This document shows positions 7,315 to 60,707 of a stretch of DNA of 64,000 nt, piece by piece. The notes beneath the pieces are model-generated. The model did no database searches. It was not told where the DNA came from and was given only the letters and a program-made list of their open reading frames with translations. The stretch covers positions 1,760,001 to 1,824,000 of the forward strand of contig NZ_JAQNDL010000003.1 of assembly GCF_028368995.1 (NCBI RefSeq), written 5' to 3'. Position numbers and translations under genes: made by a program. Origin of the DNA: Nannocystis bainbridge (lineage in GTDB: Bacteria; Myxococcota_A; Polyangia; Nannocystales; Nannocystaceae). Numbering within the stretch: position 1 is the stretch's first letter; each line of letters begins with the position of its first letter.

Positions 7315-8466
7315 ATGGACCTCGACCCGACGCCCTGCACTCCTGCCGACCTGCTCGTCCTCGACCGGCTGCGCACGCCGACGTGGATCGTCGAGCTCCC
7401 TCAGGCCGCGCGGTGGTGGTGCAACCGCGCCGGCCTGGCGACCTGGAACTCGCCCTCGCTCGCCGAGTGGATCGGTCGCAACGCCCTGCATCCCCCGTCG
7501 GCGGCCACCCTGACGCGCATGGAGAGCCTGCGCCGCCGCTTCGAGCGCGGCGAGGTCGCCACCGAGCGCTGGACCTTTTATCCCGACGGCGCCGGGCCCG
7601 TCGTCGCCGAGTGCCGCGCCTCGGGCATCTTCATCGCCGACGGCCGCGACCAGCCCGCGCGCCTGGCGATGTTGGTCGAGGCGCGCCCGCTCGCCGCCGA
7701 GGAGATCCACCCCGCCGAGCGCCGCGGCTACGAGGCGCTGCGCAACATCGGCGAGCTCGTCTCGTACTACGCCACGAGCGGCGAGGCGCTGCTGCGCAAC
7801 CCGGCGGCGATCCGCGCCCTCGGCGATTCCATCGGCCCCGGCGAGGCCCACGATCAGCTGCTCGCCGGCTTCGCCGACCCGGCCCAGGTCGCGGAGATCC
7901 GCGCCAGCGTGGCCGCCGGCGCCGTCTGGCGCAACGACGCCAGGATCCGCACCACCGGCGGCGAGCGCTGGTACGACACCGAAGCCCGCGCCGTGCTCGA
8001 CCCCGTCACCGGCAACCCCGGCGTGCTCGTCACCCAGCGCGACATCGCCGAGCGCCGCGCCCACGTCGAGGAGCTCGAGCGCAGCCGCGAGCTCCTGGCC
8101 GCCCAGGCCGAGGAGCTGCGCAACCTCGCCGCGCCGGTGATCCGCGTCGGCGACGGCGTGCTCGCGCTGCCGCTGATCGGCAAGCTCGACCGCGAGCGCG
8201 TCGAGGTCGCCCTCGCGGCGCTGATGGAGCGCACCGCCGCCGAGCGGACCGCCCGCGTGGTCCTCGACCTCACCGGCGCCGCCGACGTCGACGACGCCGC
8301 CGCCGAGGGCCTGCTCCGCCTGGTCCGCGTGCTCCGCCTCCAGGGCATCGCCCCGGCCCTCAGCGGGATCCACCCCCGCCTCGTCCACGCGATCCTCGCC
8401 GCCAGCCTCGACCTCGGCGCCGTGCCCTGCTTCCAGACCCTCGAGCACGCGCTGCGCGCGAGGTGA
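7315..8466 (+). CDS. PAS + STAS domain protein (RsbR-like)
   Basis: PAS-like segments, then LAAPVIRV..LPLIGKLD..VVLDLTG..LSGIHP STAS signature. Start taken at MDLDP. Confidence 0.85.
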   Translation: MDLDPTPCTPADLLVLDRLRTPTWIVELPQAARWWCNRAGLATWNSPSLAEWIGRNALHPPSAATLTRMESLRRRFERGEVATERWTFYPDGAGPVVAECRASGIFIADGRDQPARLAMLVEARPLAAEEIHPAERRGYEALRNIGELVSYYATSGEALLRNPAAIRALGDSIGPGEAHDQLLAGFADPAQVAEIRASVAAGAVWRNDARIRTTGGERWYDTEARAVLDPVTGNPGVLVTQRDIAERRAHVEELERSRELLAAQAEELRNLAAPVIRVGDGVLALPLIGKLDRERVEVALAALMERTAAERTARVVLDLTGAADVDDAAAEGLLRLVRVLRLQGIAPALSGIHPRLVHAILAASLDLGAVPCFQTLEHALRAR

Positions 8467-9119
8467 CGTTCCGACAGCTGTCCGCGCGGCGCAGCCGACG
8501 CTCGGGCCCGATTCGTCGATACCGGGGCCTCGCAAATCACGCGACCGTGAAGCGCAGCCAACCTCCGGCGGCGCATATCGCGATTCACAATGTTCATAGG
8601 TCCGGCAGCACCGGTGTCAACATTCACAACGTCGCGGGATATCGGACTCTACACAATCGCCCGCCTCGCCGAGACGCATCACCAGCGATGAAGTCTCGCG
8701 CGATCCCGACGATCACGCGAGCCTGACTCCTCCCAGCGATGCATGGACCCCATCTCGCCGCTCCCTTCATTCTCGCGAACGTCAGCGCGCGGCCGAGCAG
8801 CCCGCATCGTCGATCCCCACGAGCCCGGGCGCCTCGAAGTCAGCCCTGACCCTCGCTCCGGGCCCGGCCCGGCAGATCGCCGAGCTTCGACGTCCTCGAC
8901 TCCAGCGGCCACCGTGCATGACGCTCGCCCCTGTGAACATCGTACGGCGGCCCGTTCACAGCCTGCCGCGCCTGTATGTCCCTGTCCCCCCACCGGCTCC
9001 GCGGCGACCTACGCTGCAGGATTCACTGGTCGACTCGCAACCTCCCCTCCCTCGATCGTGCGACACTCCGCCGCTGGCGGACGCGGCTCGACCTCGCCGC
9101 GCTGCCCTGGAGACACGCC

Positions 9120-12100
9120 ATGGATCCGCACGAAAGTTCCGACTCGATCGATCCGCGCCTTGAAGCATTCGTCGCCAGCGTCGGCGCCCTCGCCGACCTC
9201 CTCCGCGCCGACGACCTCGATCCCTCCCCGCTGCGCAACGACTGGGGCGCCCACGAAAGGCAGCTCGGCGAGGTCCGTCGCCTCGTCCAGACCGAGATCT
9301 TGCCTGCCGCCGAGGCTGCGCTCGCTGCCGCCGCCGAGGCTGACGGCCCGCGTATTCGTCAGTTCTGCGCCGACGTGCTGGGCGACGCCGCCGGTCTCCT
9401 CTACGCCGCCCGCGAGCAGGACGCCGCCCGCACCACCGTCGCCGCCGCTGCCCGGCTCGGCGCCGGCACCGAGGCTGGCACGCTCGCCGCCGAGGGCGTC
9501 CGCGACCTCGAGAACTTCGCCCAGCTCATTCGCGCCTGGTGGCTCTTGCGTCACAAGCGGCGCGACGAGGCCCGCCAGCTCGCGCGCAGGCTCATCGGCC
9601 TCGCCCTGCTGCCGACGCTCGTCGCCTCGGCCCGGCTCATCGCCGACGCCCCTGAGCCGCTCAAGAGCGCCCCCGTGCTCTTCTCGCTCAACGGCTGCGG
9701 CGTGCGGGTCCTCGGCGATCGCGACCATCGCAGCGACGGCACCTATGTGACCACCCGCTACGCCACCCTCATCTTTATCCCGCTGTGCCCAGTCGACGCC
9801 TATCGCGTCGCGGCCGCCGAAGACGGCCATTACTTCCTCCACCGCGAGCCGCTCTCGCGCACCACCAAGATCTGGCGCTGGGCCTTCCTCGCCGCGATCC
9901 TGGTCGGCGCGCTCTCGATCGCCGCCACCCAGTACTTCGGCTCCCCCGATTATCGCCTGGGCGCCGCGATCGGTGACATCCAGCGCGAAGAGCCGGGCGC
10001 CGACAGCGAGGCGCTGCTGGCCCGCTACGAGGCCGCGCTCGCCGAGCACCCCGAGGCCAGCGTCGACGCTGCATTGCCCGCGATCGAGGCGATCGTGCGC
10101 CTCGCCACCGCCGACCTCACCGAGCCGCTCACTGTCGACGAGGTCCCGCGGCTCAAGCGGGTCATCCGTCGCTTCGAGGCCCTGCCGCGGCCCTTCCGCG
10201 GCGACGGCGGCACCCGGCCGATGATCGCCCGCATCGAGGCGCTCGCCGCCGGGCTCGGCGAGGGCTCGGACGAGGCCGTCGACGCCCAGATCCGCCTCCT
10301 CACCGACGCCCGTCGCCTGGTCGACGGCGCCGAGAGCGAGCGGCTCGCCGAACGTCAGCAGGCCCTGCGGCTCGCGCTCGCCGGCCGGATCGCCGACGCC
10401 TGGCCGCTGCGGGCCGTCCGGATCTACGCCGCCAGCACCGACGACCCGCAGGCCGTCACCGCCGCCGCACCGCTGATCGTCGGCCTCGACGACGGGCCCG
10501 CGCAGTGGCTCGAGCTCGCCGACGCCATCGAGCGCTGGCTCGGCCCCGCGCGCAAGCAAGGCGGCCTCGGCGACGCGGTGGAGCGGGCCACCGAGCGCCT
10601 GCGAGCCGCTCGCGGCAGCACCACCGATTCGGCGCGCGTCGAGCTGCTCGGCGGCAACGACCTCGAGGCGCTGCGCACCGCCCTCGCCGCCGCGCCCGGC
10701 GATCAGGAGATCGCGATCGCCCTGGCCCAGGCCCAGCGCGGCGCCGGCGAGCTCGAGGCCGCGAACGCGACCCTGGGCGCGCTCGGCAAGCCCGGGCGCC
10801 TCGTGCTCGCCGGTCAGGTCGCGCTCGCCAGCGTGTGGTCCGATCTGGGCCGCGTCGACGAGGCCGAGTCCTTGCTGCGCCAGGTCTTGATCGATCGCCT
10901 CCCGGCCTTCGAGGACGCGCGCGTGGTCTACCTCGAGGCCCGCGCCGAGGAGGCCCAGCGCTTCGTCGACCGCGCCCGCGCCGGCGACCTCCCGTCCGAC
11001 CTCGAGCGCAGCCTCGAACGCGCCTCCGAGCAGGAGCAGGGCGCCATCTTCAGCGAGTGGCTCGAGCAGCAGCTCGGCGACAGCCCCAAGCTCACCCCGC
11101 TGCTCGCCAGTTACACCGCCGCGGCCGACGTCGTGCCGGTCGCGCTGCTGCTCGGCACCATCCAGCTGCAGCGCGCGAGCGGGCTCGAGGGTGACGCTCG
11201 CGCCGCCGCCCTCAACGCCGCCGAGGGCACCTTCCTGTCGATCCAGGCCGAGGCCGAGGGCGTGCCGAGCTATCACCTCGGGCTCGGCGAGATCTACCAC
11301 CGCCTCGGCAAGCGCGACGAGGGCGACCGCGAGTTCGCGGCGCTGCTGGAGGCCAACGACCCGATGGTCGCCCTGAAGGTCGCCCATGCCTACCGCGGCC
11401 TCGGCATGAAGGAGCGCTCGCGCGAGCTCAGCGAGAAGCTCCACGCCGAGTCGCCGTCGCCGGTCAAGGAGCACGCGGCGATGCTGCGCTCGCTGCTCGC
11501 CCCCGGCCTCGAAGAGCAGCGCACGTGGGTCGAGCGCGCCGACCTCAAGGACCCGTCAGTGCGCCGCAAGCTGGCCTCGATCGAGGCCCAGGAGCTGATG
11601 GCCAAGGGCGCCTGGGAGCAGGCCGATCGCAAGCTCGCCGAGGTCCTCGCCGGCTACCTCGCCGAGGCCGAGACCGACAGCAGCTCGGCCAACAACGCCG
11701 CGGTGACCATGCTCGAGCGCTATCACTGCACCGGCGAGCGCCGCATGCTCGACGACGCCGTCGCCGTGCTCGAGAAGAGCCGCCGCCTCGACCCCGACGG
11801 CGCGGTCATCCTCCACAACCTCTCGAGCGCGGTCGAATCACTGGCGGCCGCGACGCTGGTGTCGAAGTGGGTCGACATCCACCGCCTGCCGCTCGACCTG
11901 GGCGACGCGACCGACGTGCTCGAAGCGCTGGGGCGCGGCCGGACCCGCGACGCCTTCCGCAAGCGCGTGCGCGAGGAGCCGCTGGTCCAGCGCGCGCTCG
12001 ACCTCCACCGCCAGACGGCGACCCTCGCCCCGCGCAGCTCCGACCCCCACGAGGGCGACGCCAAATGGCTCGACCTCGCCGGGGACGTCGCGGGCCTGCG

Positions 12101-51036: not shown

Positions 51037-51648
51037 ATGAAAGATCCGGCGACTCACTTTCAACCCTGGATCGGGAAGAACTACCGGTCTCCCGGCCGCA
51101 AGAACAAGCGCGTGATGGTGCTCGGCGAGTCGCACTACGAGTGGCTCGACAACCAGTCCCTCGCCAGTGACTGGACACGGCAGTCCATCGAGCATGACAT
51201 CATCGGAAAAAAGCATCGTTTCCGTACCCGTGTGGCCGCAGTTTTTCTCGGCCATCGCCCGACGACACCCGAGGAGCGCGGCGACTTCTGGCACTCCGTC
51301 GCGTTCACGAATTACATCCCCGTGAGTGTGGGCAGGGGAGCGAAGAAGGAGCCGACCGAGGAGATGTGGTCGGCCGCGATTCCGCGATTCTCCGCCTTGA
51401 TCGCGGAGCATGAGCCTCAATTCCTCCTCGTCCTCGGCCACGAGTTATGGAGGCGAGTGCACTATAGCTACGCCATGGACGGCCGCCCCGAGCCGCACCT
51501 GAGCCCGCTGGGTGAATGGCGAATGTGGCGCTACCGCATCACGCCGGACCAGACAATACTCGCCTGTGCCACGACCCATCCGTCATCCAGAGGCTTCGAC
51601 TTCAACCAGTGGCACCCTTTCGTGGAGACGATGTTGAAGCTCGCTTGA
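51037..51648 (+). CDS. Uracil-DNA glycosylase-superfamily-like protein
   Basis: PWIGKNY, VMVLGESHY, AFTNY, PQFLLVLG, THPS motifs in UDG-fold order. Confidence 0.65.
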   Translation: MKDPATHFQPWIGKNYRSPGRKNKRVMVLGESHYEWLDNQSLASDWTRQSIEHDIIGKKHRFRTRVAAVFLGHRPTTPEERGDFWHSVAFTNYIPVSVGRGAKKEPTEEMWSAAIPRFSALIAEHEPQFLLVLGHELWRRVHYSYAMDGRPEPHLSPLGEWRMWRYRITPDQTILACATTHPSSRGFDFNQWHPFVETMLKLA

Positions 51649-51699: not shown

Positions 51700-52870
51700 T
51701 CACGGCATGATGCAACTGTGCCCCGTGCACGCCAGCAGGCCGTCGGCCGCGACGTAGGCCCCGGACGCCGCGCAGAAAGCGGGTAGCACCTCGCCCCGCG
51801 CCACGGCCGACAGCGGGTTGTCCGTCAGTATCACGTCGAGGCAGTCCTGATCCGGTCCAGGCACCGACCAGTCGGCGGTCAGCAGCGCGTCGGCCTCGAC
51901 GATCCCGTTGTCCATGAGCTCGAGCGCGAGCGGCGTGGGGAACGTCGCCACCGGCGACAGGTCCTCGACCAGCGCGCCGTTGGCATACAGACGGCGGATC
52001 GGCAGGCCCGTGAGCGGCCCGAGGTCGGCGACGTCGATGCCGTTCATCGTCAGCGACTCGAGCGACGCGAGATCGGCGAGCGGGCCGAGGTCGGTGACCG
52101 CCGTGTTGGAGATGTCCAGCGTGACCAGCGACCCGAGGGCCGCGAGCGCCTCGATGTCGAGGTACGCGCCGCCCGGAGCCGACAGCTCGCGCAGCGCCGA
52201 CAGACCGGCCAGCGGCGCCAGCGAATCGATCGGGGCCCAGGCGATGTCGAGCAGCTCGAGCTGCTTGGCCGCGGCCAGCGGGCTGACATCGGCGGCCACC
52301 GCGCCATCGAGGACCAACTCGCGCAACGCCGTGAGCCCGGCCAGCGGGGCGAAGTCGGCGACCGGGTTACTGCGAAGGTTGAGGACCTCGAGCTGGGTGA
52401 GGCCGGCGAGCGGGCCGATGTCGGCGATCTCGTTGAAGGAGAGTGTCAAGGACACGAGGCCGGTGGCGCACTCGATCCCGGAGAGGCTCACGATCCCCAC
52501 GTCCGCCGCGTAGATCTGGGTGAGCGCGGCGATGTCGACGCCGAGCAGCGGGCCCTCCGGCTGCTGCAGCACCGCCCGTACGGCGGCCTCGAGCACGGGC
52601 GAACTCGACCTCGTCGCAATCGACCCCCGCTTCGGTGGTCCCGCTCGACGTCGACGCCGCCACGGTCGTCGCCTCCGTCGGCGTTGTCGTGGCGCCGCTG
52701 GTGGTGTCGTCCGGTCCCGTCGTCGCTGCCGTCGAGCTCGACGGATCGCTCGACCCATCGGTCGTCTCGGGCGGCTCGGCGGTCGTGACGGTCTCGCCGG
52801 GCTCCGGACAGCCCGACACGACGAACGAGACGCAGACGAGCGTCCAGACGCGACAGCTCTGTTTATTCAT
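51700..52870 (-). pseudogene. Internalin-like LRR lipoprotein with apparent frameshift near 52600
   Basis: MNKQ..VVSGC + Thr linker + CDEVEFA in one frame; PVLEAAVR + 22-aa LRRs (LAGLTQLEVLNLRSNPVADFAP) in another. Confidence 0.8.
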
Positions 52871-53131
52871 GAGAGCGCTCCTGCTCGAGGCTAGAGAGTG
52901 CCGGCGCACGCGCAGGCCGCGCCCACCGCGCAGGCCCCTTCCACCCTCGCCCAAGATTTTGACTTGGCGTATCTACGCCCTGTACGCTTGGTGGTAAAGC
53001 CGCTTGCATCACCCCATGTACCCACGAGGCCTCGACTACCTGCAAGCCCCCCTCGAAGGAGGGTCCCGGAAAATCGTCCGGAACCCTGCCCCGAACCTCG
53101 GTAAAGAACCTAGACTTAAATTCGGATCTCT

Positions 53132-55465
53132 ATGACTACCCAGGTCCGCTTCGGGGCACGCTTCTCCGTCGATACTCACCTCTTCCGCGAACTGGGAGAG
53201 CTACTTGTCGGCCGTGAATCGACCGCTCTCATCGAATTGGTGAAAAATGCCTACGATGCTGATGCGACCGAAGTAACCGTCTATGGCGAAAACATCGGTG
53301 ATATCAACCGGGGGACCATCCGCATCACCGACAACGGTGTCGGCATGACCCCAGAGACGTTTCAACGCGGGTTCCTTCGCGTCGCCGCCCGGATCAAAAA
53401 CGAGGGCGACAGAAAATCCCCGCGTTGGGGCCGCAGATTCACCGGTGCGAAAGGCGTTGGTCGCCTCGCGGCCCACAAGCTCGCGCGCAAGATCGAGATT
53501 CAATCGACGCCTTGGACAGAGGCCGAATCGACCGTTGGCGTCGATGGATTAATCGATTGGGACAAGGTCGAACAAGCCGAGACACTCGACCAGATCCCTG
53601 AGGGCGCGGTCTCTCTGACCGAGAAGCGCGTCAAGAAAGGCAGCGCCCACGGCACGATCCTCACCCTGACGCGGCTGCGCCGGAAGTGGACGCCTGCCCA
53701 GCGCGCCCGCTTCCTCCTCGAGGTTGAAGCGCTGCGCGCTCCTCCCTTGATAACCGGCTCGATACCTCGCAACATTGTACCGAAAGGCGGCCTCTTCGAT
53801 CGACCGTTCTTCGTCGACGCCAAGAAGACAGACCCCGGATTCACGCTGACCCTTGAGGGCGACTTCGAGACAGGCGAGGGCTACTGGCCTGCAGTGCTTG
53901 CCGCGGCGGGGTGGCTGCTCGAAATCGACGCCTCCCCCGAGCGGGTCCGCTACGCCGTTGCGCCCACGAAGAAGACCTTGACGGAGTTTCCGGCCGCTCG
54001 TCCTATCGAAGTCTCCGAGCCTCATCCGGCGTCCGAGCGAGGTCCCTTCTTCCAAGCCCGCATTTTCATCCGCGAGGGCGCTAACACGCGAGACCGCAAT
54101 GAGCGCTCCTGGGCATCGCGCGTCGCTGGCGTGCGAGTCTACATGGAAGGCTTTCGGGTCCTGCCCTACGGAGAAGAAGCCGATGACTGGCTCGCCCTAA
54201 CGCGAGATACGACCAGCCGCGACAGGAAGCTCCGTTTCCTCTCCGATTCCATCGCCTCCGACAAGCTCTCAGAGATCGACAACGAGGGCCTGCTTATTCT
54301 TCCTAGTAAACATTATATCGGCGGGGTCTTTCTCACCGAAAACCGCGCCGGATCATTGGAAATGCTGATCAACCGCGAGGGCTTTGTCCCCGACGCAGCG
54401 TTCGAGACACTGGTCAAGTTGGTCCGGCAAGGCATTGATCTCTCGACGCGCGTACGCGCAGCCGCCCGCGTCGCTCAGCGCGCGGTCCCTCACGAGGACG
54501 GTCCTGCCCCCGAGAGGCGAGAAGGAGCCTCCCCCGACCCGTCACCGCAGCTACGAAACACCTTACCGCGCGAAGAACCCCTGCGGCGCAAGGCGGAGGG
54601 CTCGCTGCGCCGCCTATCGGAGCTGAGTTCGGAGCTAGAGAAGCTCGCCAAGAGCGCCCCCGAACCGCTCCGGGTCAAGCTCCTCAGCGCCGCGACCGAT
54701 CTCAGCCAGGCGACTGCCCTCTCGCGCGAAGTGATACCTGCGGGCTCCCTGGTATTGGTGCTCGCGTCGGTTGGGACGCAACTCGCAGCGTTCACCCACG
54801 AGGTCAACCACCTCCTCGCGCTCGCATCGGATCTCGAGGCGGTGATAGCTCGGTTACAGGCGCTCGAGCTTCCACCGCGGGTTAGAAGTCAAACCTCGAA
54901 GATCGGCGGTGCCGCGACCGAGCTCCGCCGTGCCATTGAGCGGCAGGCGGCCTACCTCGTCGACATCGTCACGCCCGACGCGAGGAGACGGCGCTCCCGT
55001 CTCAAGATCTCCGAGGTTCTGAACGCGACATGGAAACTCGTCGCTACCGCGGCCGAGCAACGAGGAATCTCGCTTCGCAATGCGATCAAGGACGACGTCC
55101 GGACGCCTCCGATGTTCCGCGCAGAATTGATGGCGGTTTTTACCAACCTCTTGACGAACGCTGTCAAGGCCGCGGGTAAGGATGGAGTCATCGCTGCAAG
55201 CTCAACGACGACGAGCGATGGAGTCCTGCGGATCCGGCTGGAGAATACCGGCGCGGCCGTCGATCCAAACGAGGGCGAACGATGGTTCCGTCCGTTCGAA
55301 TCGACGACCGTCGACATCGACCCGGTACTCGGGCAAGGAATGGGCCTCGGCCTCGGGATCACCCGCGATCTGCTCGCCGAGGTCGGCGGCCAGATCTCCT
55401 TCGTACAGCCCCATCGCGGTTTCTCGACTGCGCTCGAGATCGCGTTCCCAGGAGCAGACTCATGA
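53132..55465 (+). CDS. MORC/GHKL ATPase (HATPase_c_3-like) fused to histidine kinase
   Basis: N-terminal ELVKNAYDADA, DNGVGM, GAKGVGRLA, HGT; S5-like GVRVYMEGFRVLPYG..NREG; C-terminal FTHEVNH, NLLTNAVKA, FRPFESTT, GMGLGL. Confidence 0.9.
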   Translation: MTTQVRFGARFSVDTHLFRELGELLVGRESTALIELVKNAYDADATEVTVYGENIGDINRGTIRITDNGVGMTPETFQRGFLRVAARIKNEGDRKSPRWGRRFTGAKGVGRLAAHKLARKIEIQSTPWTEAESTVGVDGLIDWDKVEQAETLDQIPEGAVSLTEKRVKKGSAHGTILTLTRLRRKWTPAQRARFLLEVEALRAPPLITGSIPRNIVPKGGLFDRPFFVDAKKTDPGFTLTLEGDFETGEGYWPAVLAAAGWLLEIDASPERVRYAVAPTKKTLTEFPAARPIEVSEPHPASERGPFFQARIFIREGANTRDRNERSWASRVAGVRVYMEGFRVLPYGEEADDWLALTRDTTSRDRKLRFLSDSIASDKLSEIDNEGLLILPSKHYIGGVFLTENRAGSLEMLINREGFVPDAAFETLVKLVRQGIDLSTRVRAAARVAQRAVPHEDGPAPERREGASPDPSPQLRNTLPREEPLRRKAEGSLRRLSELSSELEKLAKSAPEPLRVKLLSAATDLSQATALSREVIPAGSLVLVLASVGTQLAAFTHEVNHLLALASDLEAVIARLQALELPPRVRSQTSKIGGAATELRRAIERQAAYLVDIVTPDARRRRSRLKISEVLNATWKLVATAAEQRGISLRNAIKDDVRTPPMFRAELMAVFTNLLTNAVKAAGKDGVIAASSTTTSDGVLRIRLENTGAAVDPNEGERWFRPFESTTVDIDPVLGQGMGLGLGITRDLLAEVGGQISFVQPHRGFSTALEIAFPGADS

Positions 55466-56577
55466 ACACCACGGCGATCCTTTACGTTGACGACGATCCA
55501 GACGCGTTCGGCGGCTGGCGTAACGAAGTCATGGCTGACGGACGGGCGTCCCTCACGATTGCTCACCCCGACGATGTCACCCGAGACCATTTGGAGCGGG
55601 CCTCAGTAGTGCTGGTGGACTTCAAGCTCGAACATTGGCCGAACCGCGATAATCTGGAGCAGCTCAGCTTGAAACCCGTTAACGGCCTCTCGCTACTCAC
55701 GATTCTGCAAGAGCACCTACACGAATCTAAGGTCACCTCACCATGCGCATTTGCACTCCATACAGGAGCCTTTCACATCGTCGCGCGGAGCCTACCACCC
55801 CAGCCGCATATCGTGGCACGTGCCCACAATCTTGAATGGATCTTTGACAAGAGCACGCCTGGACCGAGACGTGCCGCCCAGGTCGTTCAGTTGGCCGCTG
55901 CAGTGCAGGCCCTGCCAGTCATCTGGCCCCAGGACAGCGCTCCCGCCGCGAGCGACGCCCTACGACAGTGGCTAGGTTTGAATGAATCGGCCCCATGGTC
56001 TCACTCCGCTTGGGGCGACGTGGTGCGCTGCCGCCCCCCGATCCACGAGTTCGCGGAACATACGAACGGCGTCGGCGTGCTGCGCTGGATGCTTCACCGC
56101 ATCCTGCCCTATCCATGCTTCTTGATCGACGACATCCACCTCGCCGCCAGGCTGCGGATCACGGTCGAATCGCTACGGACCGAGCTCGACCCAGGTGGAA
56201 GTCTGTACGACTTCCTTCGCACCGCGGAGTACCAAGGACAACTGAAGACATTCCTGGGGCGCCGCTGGTGGCGTAGCGGGATCGAATTGCTGCTGTTCCA
56301 GCTGACAAAAGAGAGTCCCGGCGATCTGTCATTCTTGCGGATAAAGCTGGCGGCCCGCTACCCGAACCTCGTCCCCACCGAGGCGCTCCACGTGTATCCC
56401 GTACTCGACGACCAATTTCGTTCCCGGGAAATCCTCGCCGCTGCAGACGAGGTGGTCGAGATCGTCCCCGACGACTGGCCTCCCTTCGCCGACTCTGCAT
56501 GGGCTTTGGCCTCCGATCTCGAGGACTACCCTCAGTTGAAGGCCATCGGGGTCTCGGGTGGAGACGTGGAGGAATAA
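55462..56577 (+). CDS. Receiver (REC) domain protein with unknown C-terminal domain
   Basis: ILYVDDD, VLVDFKL, NGLSL, ALHTG, FDKS; ATGA overlap with the kinase gene. Confidence 0.8.
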   Translation: MNTTAILYVDDDPDAFGGWRNEVMADGRASLTIAHPDDVTRDHLERASVVLVDFKLEHWPNRDNLEQLSLKPVNGLSLLTILQEHLHESKVTSPCAFALHTGAFHIVARSLPPQPHIVARAHNLEWIFDKSTPGPRRAAQVVQLAAAVQALPVIWPQDSAPAASDALRQWLGLNESAPWSHSAWGDVVRCRPPIHEFAEHTNGVGVLRWMLHRILPYPCFLIDDIHLAARLRITVESLRTELDPGGSLYDFLRTAEYQGQLKTFLGRRWWRSGIELLLFQLTKESPGDLSFLRIKLAARYPNLVPTEALHVYPVLDDQFRSREILAAADEVVEIVPDDWPPFADSAWALASDLEDYPQLKAIGVSGGDVEE

Positions 56578-56580
56578 GTC

Positions 56581-57336
56581 GTGGAACCTCGGGGCCTCGT
56601 TTTTTCTTTCAAAGACCTCATCGATGAATGCATGGTGCTGAAGGCGTTTGCAAAACCATTCCTCGACAAGACGACGCTCGAAACGCTCGATCTCGCCCGA
56701 TACAACCTTGAGAGTATCCAGGCCAGCGGTGTTTGGAACCAATCCTCAAAATGGCAGATCCCGGCGAATCGTCCGCTTTGCACTGTGCCCAGTGAAGGCG
56801 AATCCCAACCCGACAAGAAGAGTAAATTTCTTCTACGCGGAAAATTCAGCTTCGTCTGGGAGATCCGCGCCGAAAAGCCGAAAAAAGGCCCGCGGTCGCA
56901 CACCTTCTCGCTAGAAGGGCTCGCGTCGACGGTGATCGACATCATGGAACAAACCTCGGACGGCGAGCGCTGCATCGCGCACTGGACCGTCGACGTCGGC
57001 GATCACAGTTCGCCGGGCACGCATTTTCATTTCCAGATGAACGGTTTCGAGAAGCCACCTTTTCCAAAAGCCCTCGATATTCCCAGACTCCCCGCGCCTC
57101 TGATGAGCCCGTTCCTGGCAATCGACCTCGCCCTGGGTGAACTCTTCCAGGACCGTTGGGCTCTCCATGCGACGAGTGAGAGTCCAGACATCAGGCGCTG
57201 GCGAAATCTGCATGGGGAGCGACTGCTCAGGTTCTTCAAGTGGCAATCCGGCTGCGTCGAGCGAGCGGCCGGGAGCCCCTGGATAGCGCTCAAGAAGGCC
57301 AAGCCTCCCCGCGACTTGCTCGTCTGTAAACTATAG
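56581..57336 (+). CDS. Hypothetical protein with D..H..HFHFQ..PRLP motif (possible effector)
   Basis: Starts 4 nt after the REC gene stop with GGAGG RBS; same AT-richer codon usage. Confidence 0.8.
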   Translation: MEPRGLVFSFKDLIDECMVLKAFAKPFLDKTTLETLDLARYNLESIQASGVWNQSSKWQIPANRPLCTVPSEGESQPDKKSKFLLRGKFSFVWEIRAEKPKKGPRSHTFSLEGLASTVIDIMEQTSDGERCIAHWTVDVGDHSSPGTHFHFQMNGFEKPPFPKALDIPRLPAPLMSPFLAIDLALGELFQDRWALHATSESPDIRRWRNLHGERLLRFFKWQSGCVERAAGSPWIALKKAKPPRDLLVCKL

Positions 57337-57367
57337 TTCTGACGGCCTCGTCGTAAGCGTCAAGCCT

Positions 57368-58660
57368 TCACCCCGCCGCGCACAGCGCCAGCCCTGACGC
57401 GATCGACATCAGCTCATCCCCGCTGCGCAGCTTCGCCGCCCCGAAGCGGGCCTCGAACAGCGCGCGCACCACTGGCACGAACGCCGTGCCGCCGGTCATG
57501 AACACGCAGTCGACATCCCCCGCCGTCACCCCCGCGCTCGCCAGCGTCTCGTCGAGGCAGCTGGCGATCGAAGTCGTCACCGGCTCGATCCAGCGCTCGA
57601 AGTCGCGGCGGGTCACCGCCGCGTGGATCTCGATCTCCCCGTCGCTGAAGTCGAACTTCGCCTGCGACTTGTGCGACAGCTCGACCTTGGTCCGCTCGAC
57701 CGCCTTGTGCAGGTGGAACGCCCCGTTCGTCTCGATGATGTGCATCAACTTCTCGATGCGGTCCGGGTGACGCGCCCCGCGGCGCAGCCGCTCGAGCTCG
57801 GCCCGCACTCGCGCCCCGGCCAGGAACGGCAAATGATGCCAGCGCGCCAGCTTGTAATAATAGGCCCCGGGGATCGGTCGCTCCACCCCCATCTCGACGT
57901 ACGTGCTGCCCTTGCCGAGCGCCGGGCACACCAGGTGCTCGATGAGCGCCGCGTCGAGGTCGTCGCCGGCCGCACCCACGCCGCCGGTGCCGACGATCTC
58001 GCGCGCGCGCGCGTCCCCCTGCCCGGTCGGACCCATGCGCATCAGGCAGAAGTCCGTCGTGCCCGCGCCGAAGTCGGCCACCAGCGCCAGCTCGGGCCGC
58101 TTCAGCGTGCGCTCGTAGTGATGCGCCGCCGCGACCGGCTCGAGCTCGAGCTGCGCGTCGTGGAAGCCTGCCACCCGCGCCGCTGCCAGCAGGCGCTCGG
58201 CCGCCAGCGCGTCGTCGGCCGGCGTCGTCCCGCCCGCGAAGCGCACCGGCCTGCCGATCGTCGCCGCCTCGATCGCCACGCCCAGGTGCTGCTCCGCGCG
58301 CTCGCGCAGCCGCTGCAGGTACAGCGCGATCATGTCGTCGAGCCCGATCGTGTGCTGGGCCACCTGCGTGCGCCCCAGCGACTCGGTCGTCAGGTGGGTC
58401 TTGAACGACTGCATCAGCCGGCCCTCGCCCATCCGCTCGAGGTACGCCGCGATCGCCTCGCCCCCCGCCGAGTACTGGATCGCCTGCCCGCGCGGCTGCT
58501 CCTCCGGGTCGAAGAACAGCAGCGTGCGCCAGCTCGGCCCCGGCGTGCCGAGCGTCGGCAGCTGGGCGAAGCGTACCTGCCCGGCCGCGTCGACCAGCGC
58601 GAGCGCCGAACTCGAGGTGCCGAAATCGATCCCGACTCTGGGGCGCTTGCCTGGCGTCAT
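57368..58660 (-). CDS. yegD: Hsp70-family chaperone, YegD-like
   Basis: GIDFGTS, GRLMQSFK, IGRPVRF, EPVAAA, DFGAGTTDF, FMTGGT; no substrate-binding domain. Confidence 0.85.
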   Translation of the reverse strand: MTPGKRPRVGIDFGTSSSALALVDAAGQVRFAQLPTLGTPGPSWRTLLFFDPEEQPRGQAIQYSAGGEAIAAYLERMGEGRLMQSFKTHLTTESLGRTQVAQHTIGLDDMIALYLQRLRERAEQHLGVAIEAATIGRPVRFAGGTTPADDALAAERLLAAARVAGFHDAQLELEPVAAAHHYERTLKRPELALVADFGAGTTDFCLMRMGPTGQGDARAREIVGTGGVGAAGDDLDAALIEHLVCPALGKGSTYVEMGVERPIPGAYYYKLARWHHLPFLAGARVRAELERLRRGARHPDRIEKLMHIIETNGAFHLHKAVERTKVELSHKSQAKFDFSDGEIEIHAAVTRRDFERWIEPVTTSIASCLDETLASAGVTAGDVDCVFMTGGTAFVPVVRALFEARFGAAKLRSGDELMSIASGLALCAAG

Positions 58661-58840
58661 GAGGCGCGCGTTGTACCCGAAAACATGCCCCTGCACCCCG
58701 GCGGTTTCGGCGCGAGCGCCAGGCCCGCGGCCTCTGCGACAACCCCGCAGCCCGGCCTGTCGCCGTCACCGATCTCGCACCGTGCCAGCGCCGAACGGGC
58801 CTCACGGCGCGTCGCATGCGGCTCGACGCCAGGCGCCGGC

Positions 58841-59954: not shown

Positions 59955-60707
59955 ATGAAGACCGTGCTCATCACTGGTTGCTCCTCCGGCTACGGCCTCG
60001 AGACCGCGCGTCACTTCCACGCTCAGGGCTGGAACGTCATCGCCACCATGCGGACCCCGCGCGAGGACCTGCTGCCCCGCTCGGAGCGGATCCGCGTGCT
60101 CGCGCTCGACGTCACCAAAGAAGGCAGCATCGCCGCCGCGCTCGCCGCGTGCGGGCCTCTCGACGTGCTCGTCAACAACGCCGGCATCGGGGCCCTCGGC
60201 GCCTTCGAGGGCACGCCGATGGCCCTGGCCCGCGAGGTGTTCGAGACCAACACCTTCGGCGTGATGGCGATGACCCAGGCCGTGCTGCCGCAGCTGCGCG
60301 AGCGACGGTCGGGCGTGATCGTCAACGTCACCTCGAGCGTGACCCTCACGCCGATGCCGCTCGTGGCCGTGTACACCGCCAGCAAGATGGCCATCGAGGG
60401 CTTCACGGCCTCGCTGGCGCACGAGCTCGCGCCGTTCGACGTGCGCGTCAAGCTGGTCGAGCCGGGCTACGCCCCGACCACGCGCTTCGCCAGCAACGGG
60501 ACGCCCCCGGACCGGCTGATCCCCGAGGCCTACGCGCCGTTCGCCCAGCGCGTGTTCGCGGCCTTCATGCAGCCGGCCGCTGTGACCACCGAGGCCGACG
60601 TGGCCGAGGGCGTCTACCGGGCCGCGACCGACACCTCCGGGCAGCTGCGCTTCCCCGCCGGCCCCGACGCCGTGGCCCTGGCGCGCGCCGCCGGGCACCC
60701 GGTCTGA
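59955..60707 (+). CDS. SDR family oxidoreductase
   Basis: ITGCSSGYG, VNNAG, YTASK; divergent from the AraC gene. Confidence 0.95.
   Translation: MKTVLITGCSSGYGLETARHFHAQGWNVIATMRTPREDLLPRSERIRVLALDVTKEGSIAAALAACGPLDVLVNNAGIGALGAFEGTPMALAREVFETNTFGVMAMTQAVLPQLRERRSGVIVNVTSSVTLTPMPLVAVYTASKMAIEGFTASLAHELAPFDVRVKLVEPGYAPTTRFASNGTPPDRLIPEAYAPFAQRVFAAFMQPAAVTTEADVAEGVYRAATDTSGQLRFPAGPDAVALARAAGHPV

Follow-up and report, generated by a model that had tools for sequence, protein, structure and literature searches.

The 64,000-nucleotide stretch of Nannocystis bainbridge DNA analysed here (RefSeq assembly GCF_028368995.1, contig NZ_JAQNDL010000003.1, positions 1,760,001 to 1,824,000; hereafter the window) carries at positions 53132-57336 three tightly coupled genes on the same (+) strand, g1, g2 and g3. 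They make up a recently acquired copy, intact and without a methylase, of a kinase-receiver module that resembles restriction-modification (RM) systems. In the fuller reading that we prefer, to which we give a probability of roughly 60%, the trio is the horizontally acquired and intact core of a widespread four-gene RM-like module, and the loss of the methylase here is a derived state. The four parts of the family would be an ATPase-histidine kinase (g1), a receiver (REC) protein with a further C-terminal domain (g2), a protein of novel fold (g3) and a DNA methylase, either an N6-adenine enzyme of the Eco57I/TaqI type or a C5-cytosine enzyme accompanied by Vsr.

Methylase linkage and origin of the trio

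Relatives of g1 are numerous: among 8000 candidates scored, 1965 homologues were found at E <= 0.001, and scanning species-representative genomes yielded 580 such stretches, 80 being retained. These belong to Acidobacteriota, Myxococcota, Verrucomicrobiota, Actinomycetota, Chloroflexota, Planctomycetota, Bacteroidota, Campylobacter and archaea. The closer relatives keep the same three-gene order with overlaps or short gaps, and in 35 distant loci the two genes that follow g1 have the same sizes as g2 and g3. Profile comparison with hhalign relates the first of these distant genes to g2 (probability 99.7%, E 3e-26) and the second to g3 (95.2%, E 3e-8), with a control pairing at 0.2%.

In these relatives the place after g3 or before g1 is almost always taken by an N6 methylase of the Eco57I/TaqI type or by a C5 methylase accompanied by Vsr; Pfam, run on 104 neighbouring proteins, identified Eco57I, N6_Mtase, TaqI_C, DNA_methylase and Vsr. 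When local profiles of the cognate N6 and C5 methylases and of Vsr were run over all loci, a methylase was found in 69 of the 80 genome loci (one more has Vsr only, and ten have nothing, four of these being truncated) and in 67 of 80 metagenome loci; 45 of the 80 genome loci have an N6 methylase without a C5 methylase. Four further genomes of the phylum have the methylase adjacent in all three cases that could be judged. When 164 loci were sorted by tblastn, the queries being g2 and g3 of the window, 75 that did not show the two genes together (distant branches or cut contigs) were set aside; of the 89 left, 78 carry a methylase: 72 directly after g3, five directly before g1 and one about 1 kb upstream. 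Two of the remaining 11 show none with only one side of the trio on the contig and nine are not judgeable; a methylase-free locus with 1500 nt visible on both sides was not seen among the 89. The trio-adjacent methylase of two long-read metagenome bins is split over three overlapping frames (L010:11180-12679 and L015:11051-12647), for which sequencing frameshifts and real decay are equally likely.

No open reading frame (ORF) of at least 80 aa in the 64-kb window matches the profiles of cognate N6 methylases, C5 methylases or Vsr, and no methylase remnant was found there, tblastn giving nothing better than E 0.002. That match (60227-60388, minus strand; 68 aa, 38% identical to the N-terminus of the methylase of the distant trio L037) falls within a long ORF of high GC content that is not part of the island, and chance is its probable cause. 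The methylase ORF of relatives overlaps or abuts the g3 stop, and the corresponding slot in the window is the short junction between g3 and a convergent Hsp70-like gene (Table 1). FastTree (LG + gamma, midpoint root), applied to 86 g1 proteins, places the window copy in a clade of eight (support 1.0) together with L001, L116, L123, L124, L125, L130 and L132, and an N6 methylase stands right after g3 in 7/7 of these other members. By parsimony the methylase-less state of the window copy is derived, because its g1 nests among seven methylase-bearing clade members.

The trio is horizontally acquired, because its G+C content at third codon positions (GC3) is offset from that of host genes, g1 is absent from 40/40 relatives (ten of them from the same genus), the g3 profile is present in 5/401 genomes of the phylum, and the trio is single copy in the genome (g1 and g2 searched). 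GC3 is 0.730 in g1, 0.718 in g2 and 0.687 in g3 versus 0.968 in the gene for an AcrB-type pump, 0.873 in that for a leucine-rich repeat (LRR) protein, 0.944 in the Hsp70-like gene and 0.917 in a DUF4215 gene. The same dip is seen in 500-nt steps, with a GC content of 0.56-0.68 across 53000-57499 versus 0.69-0.77 on both sides; that of the whole genome is 0.715, and the window is about 70% G+C. As judged from its sequence the copy is intact and not decayed, because all highly conserved columns are kept: there are no deviations at the 60 (g1), 28 (g2) and 30 (g3) columns conserved in at least 93% of sequences, and none of the three genes holds a frameshift or stop.

The three proteins and their surroundings

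The N-terminal module of g1 is a MutL/MORC-like GHKL ATPase, its best solved sequence relatives being MutL (E 1e-5) and MORC2 (E 6e-3). The GHKL ATP-binding motifs I-IV are present (E35/N39, D67xGxG71, G105xKGxG110 and T175; 94-100% of 86 sequences), and the residues E35/N39, D67-G69-G71 and G105-K107-G108-G110 are found in all 86. H556, the predicted phospho-accepting histidine, precedes the HATPase_c domain, which is the order seen in histidine kinases, and is followed by the remaining kinase boxes: N box N676, G1 box ENTG at 704-707, F box FRPFEST and G2 box GQGMGLGL, with N676, G707, G736, G738 and G740 conserved in 100% of the 86 g1 sequences. The G1 box is not DxGxG, and ENTG is identical in 14/14 aligned homologues. 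The HATPase_c domain gives partial matches to many histidine-kinase NCBIfam models, and among PHROGs only the two ATPase domains of g1 find a match. The highest 19-residue hydropathy of g1, 1.77, falls on the helix that bears H556, and no membrane segment was seen in this simple hydropathy scan, which is not a transmembrane predictor.

g2 overlaps the g1 stop by ATGA, and its start is most likely this ATG at 55462, inside a longer ORF (55282-56577). In its AlphaFold2 (AF2) model (pLDDT 95.5) residues 1-155 have the REC fold (VIA Z 12.5; root-mean-square deviation 2.5-3.0 over 116-130 residues; Foldseek E ~3e-4). D10, D11 and D53 are present in 60/60 sequences, K130 in at least 90% of 56, and T101 closes strand 4 in FALHTG. 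g2 itself has no match in Pfam, NCBIfam or PADLOC, and the Pfam Response_reg model finds 8/56 of its relatives with a best E of 0.055, below significance. The only likenesses found for the C-domain are to unnamed proteins, 356-382 aa in length (TM 0.72-0.73, structure atlas), and in a VIA search with the whole of g2 all 50 matches shown start in the REC domain, 49 of them ending by residue 169. Pfam scans recognised no DNA-binding output domain. Because the residues conserved in the C-domain are mainly Trp, Arg, Pro and Gly, the sequence suggests a role in binding rather than catalysis.

g3 starts with GTG 3 nt after the g2 stop. Its AF2 model has a pLDDT of 90.3, and no solved fold was found for it (Foldseek best E 0.12; VIA best Z 4.6; profile against PDB sequences best E 0.81). 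Two candidate assignments were rejected: an RWD, Atg10 or E2-like fold, for which the VIA matches (Z 3.3-4.4) are too weak, and DUF2290, a lead from the ESM atlas (15% of one cluster, score 0.87) that 0/50 members match in Pfam at E <= 1. The family is large, with 576 cluster representatives at E <= 0.001, and the 150 listed have 231-294 aa, 149 being matched as one stretch. Its conserved columns are T68, W93, W135, H150 (codon 57028-57030), R169, E187, Q190 and K238. A pattern search of viral contigs gave 25 matches, and 0 of them are g3 relatives. g3 is most likely the effector of the module and probably a nuclease, a prediction favoured because conserved His, Glu, Gln and Lys sit in g3 and because the sister C5-methylase branch puts an HNH_2 nuclease (L064) or Vsr after the receiver gene.

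Module variants in which the third or fourth gene is swapped include the HNH_2 nuclease of L064 (10579-11343), a Ser/Thr protein kinase in L050, and SNF2-type helicases with PLD nuclease domains in L035 and L067. The trio layout is also found on two plasmids (NZ_CP040793.1, L202; NZ_CP062234.1, L203), one of them a MOBF mobilizable plasmid of Clavibacter californiensis. Each has a gene of 583-585 aa directly upstream of g1, for which RefSeq gives the name SAM (S-adenosylmethionine)-dependent methyltransferase in the Rhizobium case and "hypothetical protein" in that of Clavibacter (the latter not scanned). The g1 homologues are named "ATP-binding protein" on these plasmids, the g2 and g3 homologues "hypothetical protein", and in the Rhizobium copy a GIY-YIG nuclease gene follows g3.

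Several features of the trio had been described in an earlier account of the same DNA, made from its letters and translations (the sequence-only reading). The AT-richer, tightly coupled three-gene operon, the two GHKL modules of g1 (Pfam HATPase_c_3 and HATPase_c) with their atypical ENTG box and without a transmembrane segment, the catalytic residues of the receiver, its want of a recognisable DNA-binding output and the missing methylase partner were all borne out. The description of gene 3 as His-rich was not, since histidine makes up 7/251 residues (2.8%) with only a local cluster, HSSPGTHFHF.

Table 1. Features of the trio and its immediate borders, in window coordinates
Feature	Position	Strand	Description
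g1	53132..55465	+	777 aa; MutL/MORC-like GHKL ATPase, middle region, H-box helix, histidine-kinase catalytic domain
N-terminal GHKL core of g1, HATPase_c_3, residues 31-156	53222..53599	+	Pfam E 7e-16
H556 codon of g1 (FTHE), predicted phospho-accepting His	54797..54799	+	H556 in 86/86 sequences, E557 in 93%
C-terminal kinase ATP-binding domain of g1, HATPase_c, residues 665-766	55124..55429	+	Pfam E 2e-21
g2	55462..56577	+	371 aa; receiver domain and C-domain
REC fold of g2, residues 1-155	55462-55926	+	AF2 model
D53 codon of g2	55618-55620	+
Trp/Arg-rich C-domain of g2, residues 158-371	55933-56574	+	no assigned fold
g3	56581..57336	+	251 aa, GTG start; candidate effector
Upstream intergenic region	52759..53131	+	373 nt; AT content rises toward g1 start codon
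Junction of g3 stop and stop of convergent Hsp70-like gene	57337..57367	.	31 nt; right island edge
Hsp70-like ATPase gene, host	57368..58696	-	Pfam HSP70 E 3e-19; convergent; boundary marker

Within the window the trio is flanked by 53 kb to one side and 6.6 kb to the other, and the neighbours include DUF4215, DUF1554 and LRR proteins and the AcrB-type pump. The intergenic region upstream of g1 is presumed to hold its promoter; a scan for the sigma-70-type consensus, which covered 52600-57600, found none, and promoter signals of another kind may be in use here. Two relatives, L001 and L116, resemble the window at the DNA level only from 53162 onwards, and the likeness to L116 stops at 57323. 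The right edge of the island is sharp, with likeness to five same-genus genomes (loci L106-L110) beginning at 57368-57374, where the Hsp70-like gene has 85-87% DNA identity to theirs; its protein has a counterpart of 83-85% identity in 6/10 same-genus genomes. The 10 kb beyond the 3' end of this gene is different in each of those five genomes, so the spot is variable, which suggests an integration hotspot. As a fourth member of the system the Hsp70-like gene was rejected: it has no match in the 80 genome loci (L001-L080) and is conserved in the genus. No convincing flanking repeats or target-site duplications were found round the island, nor any tRNA gene in the window. On the left, a 203-aa ORF (51037-51648, plus strand) has a G+C content of 0.61 and a GC3 of 0.79, below those of the host, and matches the superfamily of uracil-DNA glycosylases only weakly (PF03167, E 2.7e-4, under the cut-off). 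It may be another foreign gene of the same variable region and was rejected as a member of the system, having no counterpart in 164 related trio loci.

Proposed mechanism and its alternatives

The mechanism that we infer for the family combines a mark with a phosphorelay. Through the methylase, the cell would mark its own DNA. In place of a sensor domain g1 would use its MORC-like ATPase, which would load on DNA and, on meeting unmarked DNA, would drive autophosphorylation at H556. The phosphoryl group would then pass from H556 to D53 of g2, and phosphorylated g2, whose C-domain could be the DNA- or partner-binding part, would license, release or position an effector, most likely g3 acting as a nuclease. 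In the window the orphan trio might be harmless through low expression, through a trigger that lies beyond unmethylated DNA, or through an unlinked methylase.

Several observations weigh against our reading. An intact module without its methylase should harm its own cell under a simple RM model, yet it is present in an assembly of 11.05 Mb in five contigs, a situation that points either to an incomplete model or to some other protection of the DNA. Neither family nor fold searches found a nuclease fold or motif in g3 or in whole-protein g2. A median identity of 30% and the presence of both N6 and C5 types make the cognate methylases a very diverse set, to whose specificities one conserved trio would somehow have to be matched. 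The defence context of the relatives speaks for our reading, as in 17/25 loci their flanks hold ORFs that match known defence models of PADLOC at E <= 1e-10, including BREX, DISARM, type I and III RM, DRT, Cas1, SoFic and PD-T4-6, although this is a raw count with no matched background control; in the window 0/13 flank ORFs match at that threshold, the sole weaker match being the Hsp70-like gene (E 2e-9). Finally, no experimental study of a g1-type architecture was found in the literature searched, which did not extend to subscription journals.

The alternative that survives best, though we hold it to be unlikely, is a split system: an active trio would coexist with a solitary methylase, encoded elsewhere in the genome, that protects the host DNA in trans, and the two together would function as the complete four-gene module does. 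In its favour, the cognate-methylase profile, run genome-wide, finds a 567-aa gene with Eco57I, TaqI_C and N6_Mtase domains at G000:C1:4034835-4036592 (E 4e-68), 39% identical over 498 residues to the methylase beside the distant trio L037, and it has no trio as neighbour, g1 and g2 being present only once in the genome. The genome holds 11 Eco57I-domain matches in all, the nearest about 57 kb from the trio. However, this solitary-looking methylase resembles the partner of a distant branch and not those of the window's own clade, and the methylase of the closest relative (L001) has no genome match at E <= 0.01. It also lies on another contig, where its neighbours are unrelated genes (for an M28 peptidase, a protein with an HSDR_N domain and an ISL3 transposase), and an unlinked partner is not the habit of the family, the methylase being directly adjacent in 77/78 judged relatives. 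This methylase gene (at 7836-9536, minus strand, of locus L200, G000:C1:4027000-4044000), near which the HSDR_N-domain protein has 423 aa and a lower G+C, may be the remnant of another RM unit.

The sequence-only reading had proposed a stand-alone, phosphorelay-gated defence system, and of this the acquired, two-component-like module and the defence context in relatives are upheld, whereas the module is not stand-alone by design. A stronger form of the proposal would make the trio a self-sufficient, kinase-gated DNA-conflict module, with a MORC-like clamp as the sensor of the kinase, g3 as executioner and the methylase as an accessory dispensable for self-tolerance, which the phosphorelay switch would provide instead, so that the trio alone would sense infection and fire its effector; we regard this as improbable, and place it after the split system. 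All conserved residues of the three genes are kept despite the absence of the methylase, the effector could be kept inactive by the switch from kinase to receiver until a trigger arrives, and Detocs is described as a three-gene two-component defence without a methylase (PMC11728103). On the other hand, methylase-free relatives with both flanks visible number 0/89 (11 not judgeable), the other members of the window's clade all have the methylase, the flanks of the window are no defence island, and a single methylase-less case is indistinguishable from recent loss. If such a module did exist, the core would work alone here, and restriction-like immunity would be decided by signalling and not by direct recognition of a site by an enzyme. 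The earlier account had counted it against its own proposal if the trio should be the remnant of an RM module that its homologues carry: the homologues do so in 78/89 loci, which tells against the proposal, but "remnant" is too strong a word for genes that are intact.

That the trio is a silent passenger, recently stranded, unexpressed or inert and bound to decay, is quite improbable. In the sample no other copy shows the methylase-less state, which is a derived one, no promoter-like consensus lies upstream of g1, and the composition is still far from that of the host, pointing to recent arrival. However, frameshifts, stops and changes at conserved positions are all lacking, and the promoter scan concerns the sigma-70-type consensus only, other signals being possible in this organism. 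Least probable is an ordinary cytoplasmic two-component system that regulates host genes, which the intact kinase and receiver features would allow and which the authors of PMC8011034 also considered for their elements, but which fits poorly with a g2 without a recognisable DNA-binding output domain, a patchy spread (5/401 genomes of the phylum, 0/40 relatives), the foreign composition of the trio, and the near-obligate methylase linkage and nearby known defence systems in relatives.

Should our reading of an RM-like module hold, a MutL/MORC-type ATPase that serves as the input of a histidine kinase, joined to a receiver and a methylase, would define a large class of putative immunity systems. 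Such a class would link restriction-modification with two-component signalling, and it bears on what the forerunners of eukaryotic MORCs do in prokaryotes; among its three core proteins, two contain domains without a Pfam family or solved fold. The copy in the window amounts to an experiment made by nature, since the attack module is intact and its methylase is missing. Expression and tolerance of this copy would mean that the simple RM model does not hold for the class, and silence, or protection in trans, would make the copy an example of how such modules outlive the loss of a partner.

Comparison with known systems

PADLOC-DB v2.0.0 (2023), the kind of defence-system library that the sequence-only reading had pointed to, holds no system that matches the trio: g1 gives only partial REase_II matches with its N-terminal domain, and g2 and g3 give none at E <= 0.1. 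The models concerned are those of the BbrUII/HgiDII type II restriction enzymes (NF050001) and of PADLOC REase_II (PDLC03419 and PDLC03485), the N-terminal GHKL part of which aligns with the first ~175 residues of g1 (E 4e-24 and 4e-16). Against the BbrUII/HgiDII model, residues 11-189 of g1 score 85 bits, far under the 550-bit cut-off; the match covers no more than the first quarter of the model, and the rest of g1 is a histidine kinase and not a restriction-enzyme body.

The sequence and fold features of two-component systems are present, with the H, N, G1, F and G2 boxes in the kinase and the acidic pair, Asp, Thr and Lys in the receiver. Detocs, as far as the available text describes it, consists of the kinase DtcA, the buffer DtcB and the response regulator DtcC with its effector (PMC11728103). 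The likeness to the trio is one of functional analogy only, namely a three-gene defence in which phosphotransfer from kinase to receiver gates an effector; Detocs, here compared by description only, has no methylase and no MORC-like ATPase, and g3 is not of the receiver type.

MORC and paraMORC GHKL ATPases were placed by Iyer, Abhiman and Aravind in 2008 (PMC2292703) in mobile RM operons with methylases, Vsr and nucleases, with a proposed role in ATP-driven handling of DNA between recognition and cleavage sites. The g1 family resembles these proteins in its MutL/MORC-like GHKL module and its methylase linkage. The MORC and paraMORC families are defined by an S5-fold domain that comes after the GHKL domain. 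They differ in their partners, which are SF-II helicases and RE-fold, HNH or TIR domains; the available part of that paper mentions no receiver, and "histidine kinase" occurs in it only where GHKL is spelled out.

The closest precedent is the work of Bellieny-Rabelo, Pretorius and Moleleki in 2021 (PMC8011034), who described proteins of HATPase_c_3 + HEF_HK + HATPase_c architecture paired with Response_reg_2 proteins. According to the accessible text, their computational study covered 644 regions enriched in type II RM genes and proposed a two-component-like system tied to RM. Their kinases, like g1, are soluble and have an HATPase_c_3 domain, an H-box with His-Glu and a C-terminal HATPase_c; the adjacent partners, like g2, are divergent REC proteins that keep Asp-Asp, Asp, Thr and Lys; and the elements, like this family, are methylase-linked and patchy across phyla, with a proposed descent from paraMORC. 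The Pfam models do not carry over. PF19191 (HEF_HK), a model here without a positive control, matches g1 at no E <= 0.1 and 0/31 g1-like proteins at E <= 0.001. PF19192 (Response_reg_2) has no match to g2 at E <= 1 and finds 1/56 of its relatives (E 0.26); in the trio's own genome and in five genomes with distant trios it gave 0 matches, and no control was matched either. The published set, as described, consists of gene pairs, mostly with a C5 methylase, Vsr or HNH, whereas in the branch reported here g3 is conserved as a third gene and the methylases are mostly N6 enzymes of the Eco57I/TaqI type. RM genes stand near the HEF_HK elements, as the methylase does beside most relatives of the trio, whereas the copy in the window has none. 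Thus, going by the part of PMC8011034 available, the kind is already in print as a bioinformatic prediction, and the branch follows the same logic as the HEF_HK elements while differing from them in its Pfam models, its third gene, its N6 linkage and the existence of a methylase-less copy.

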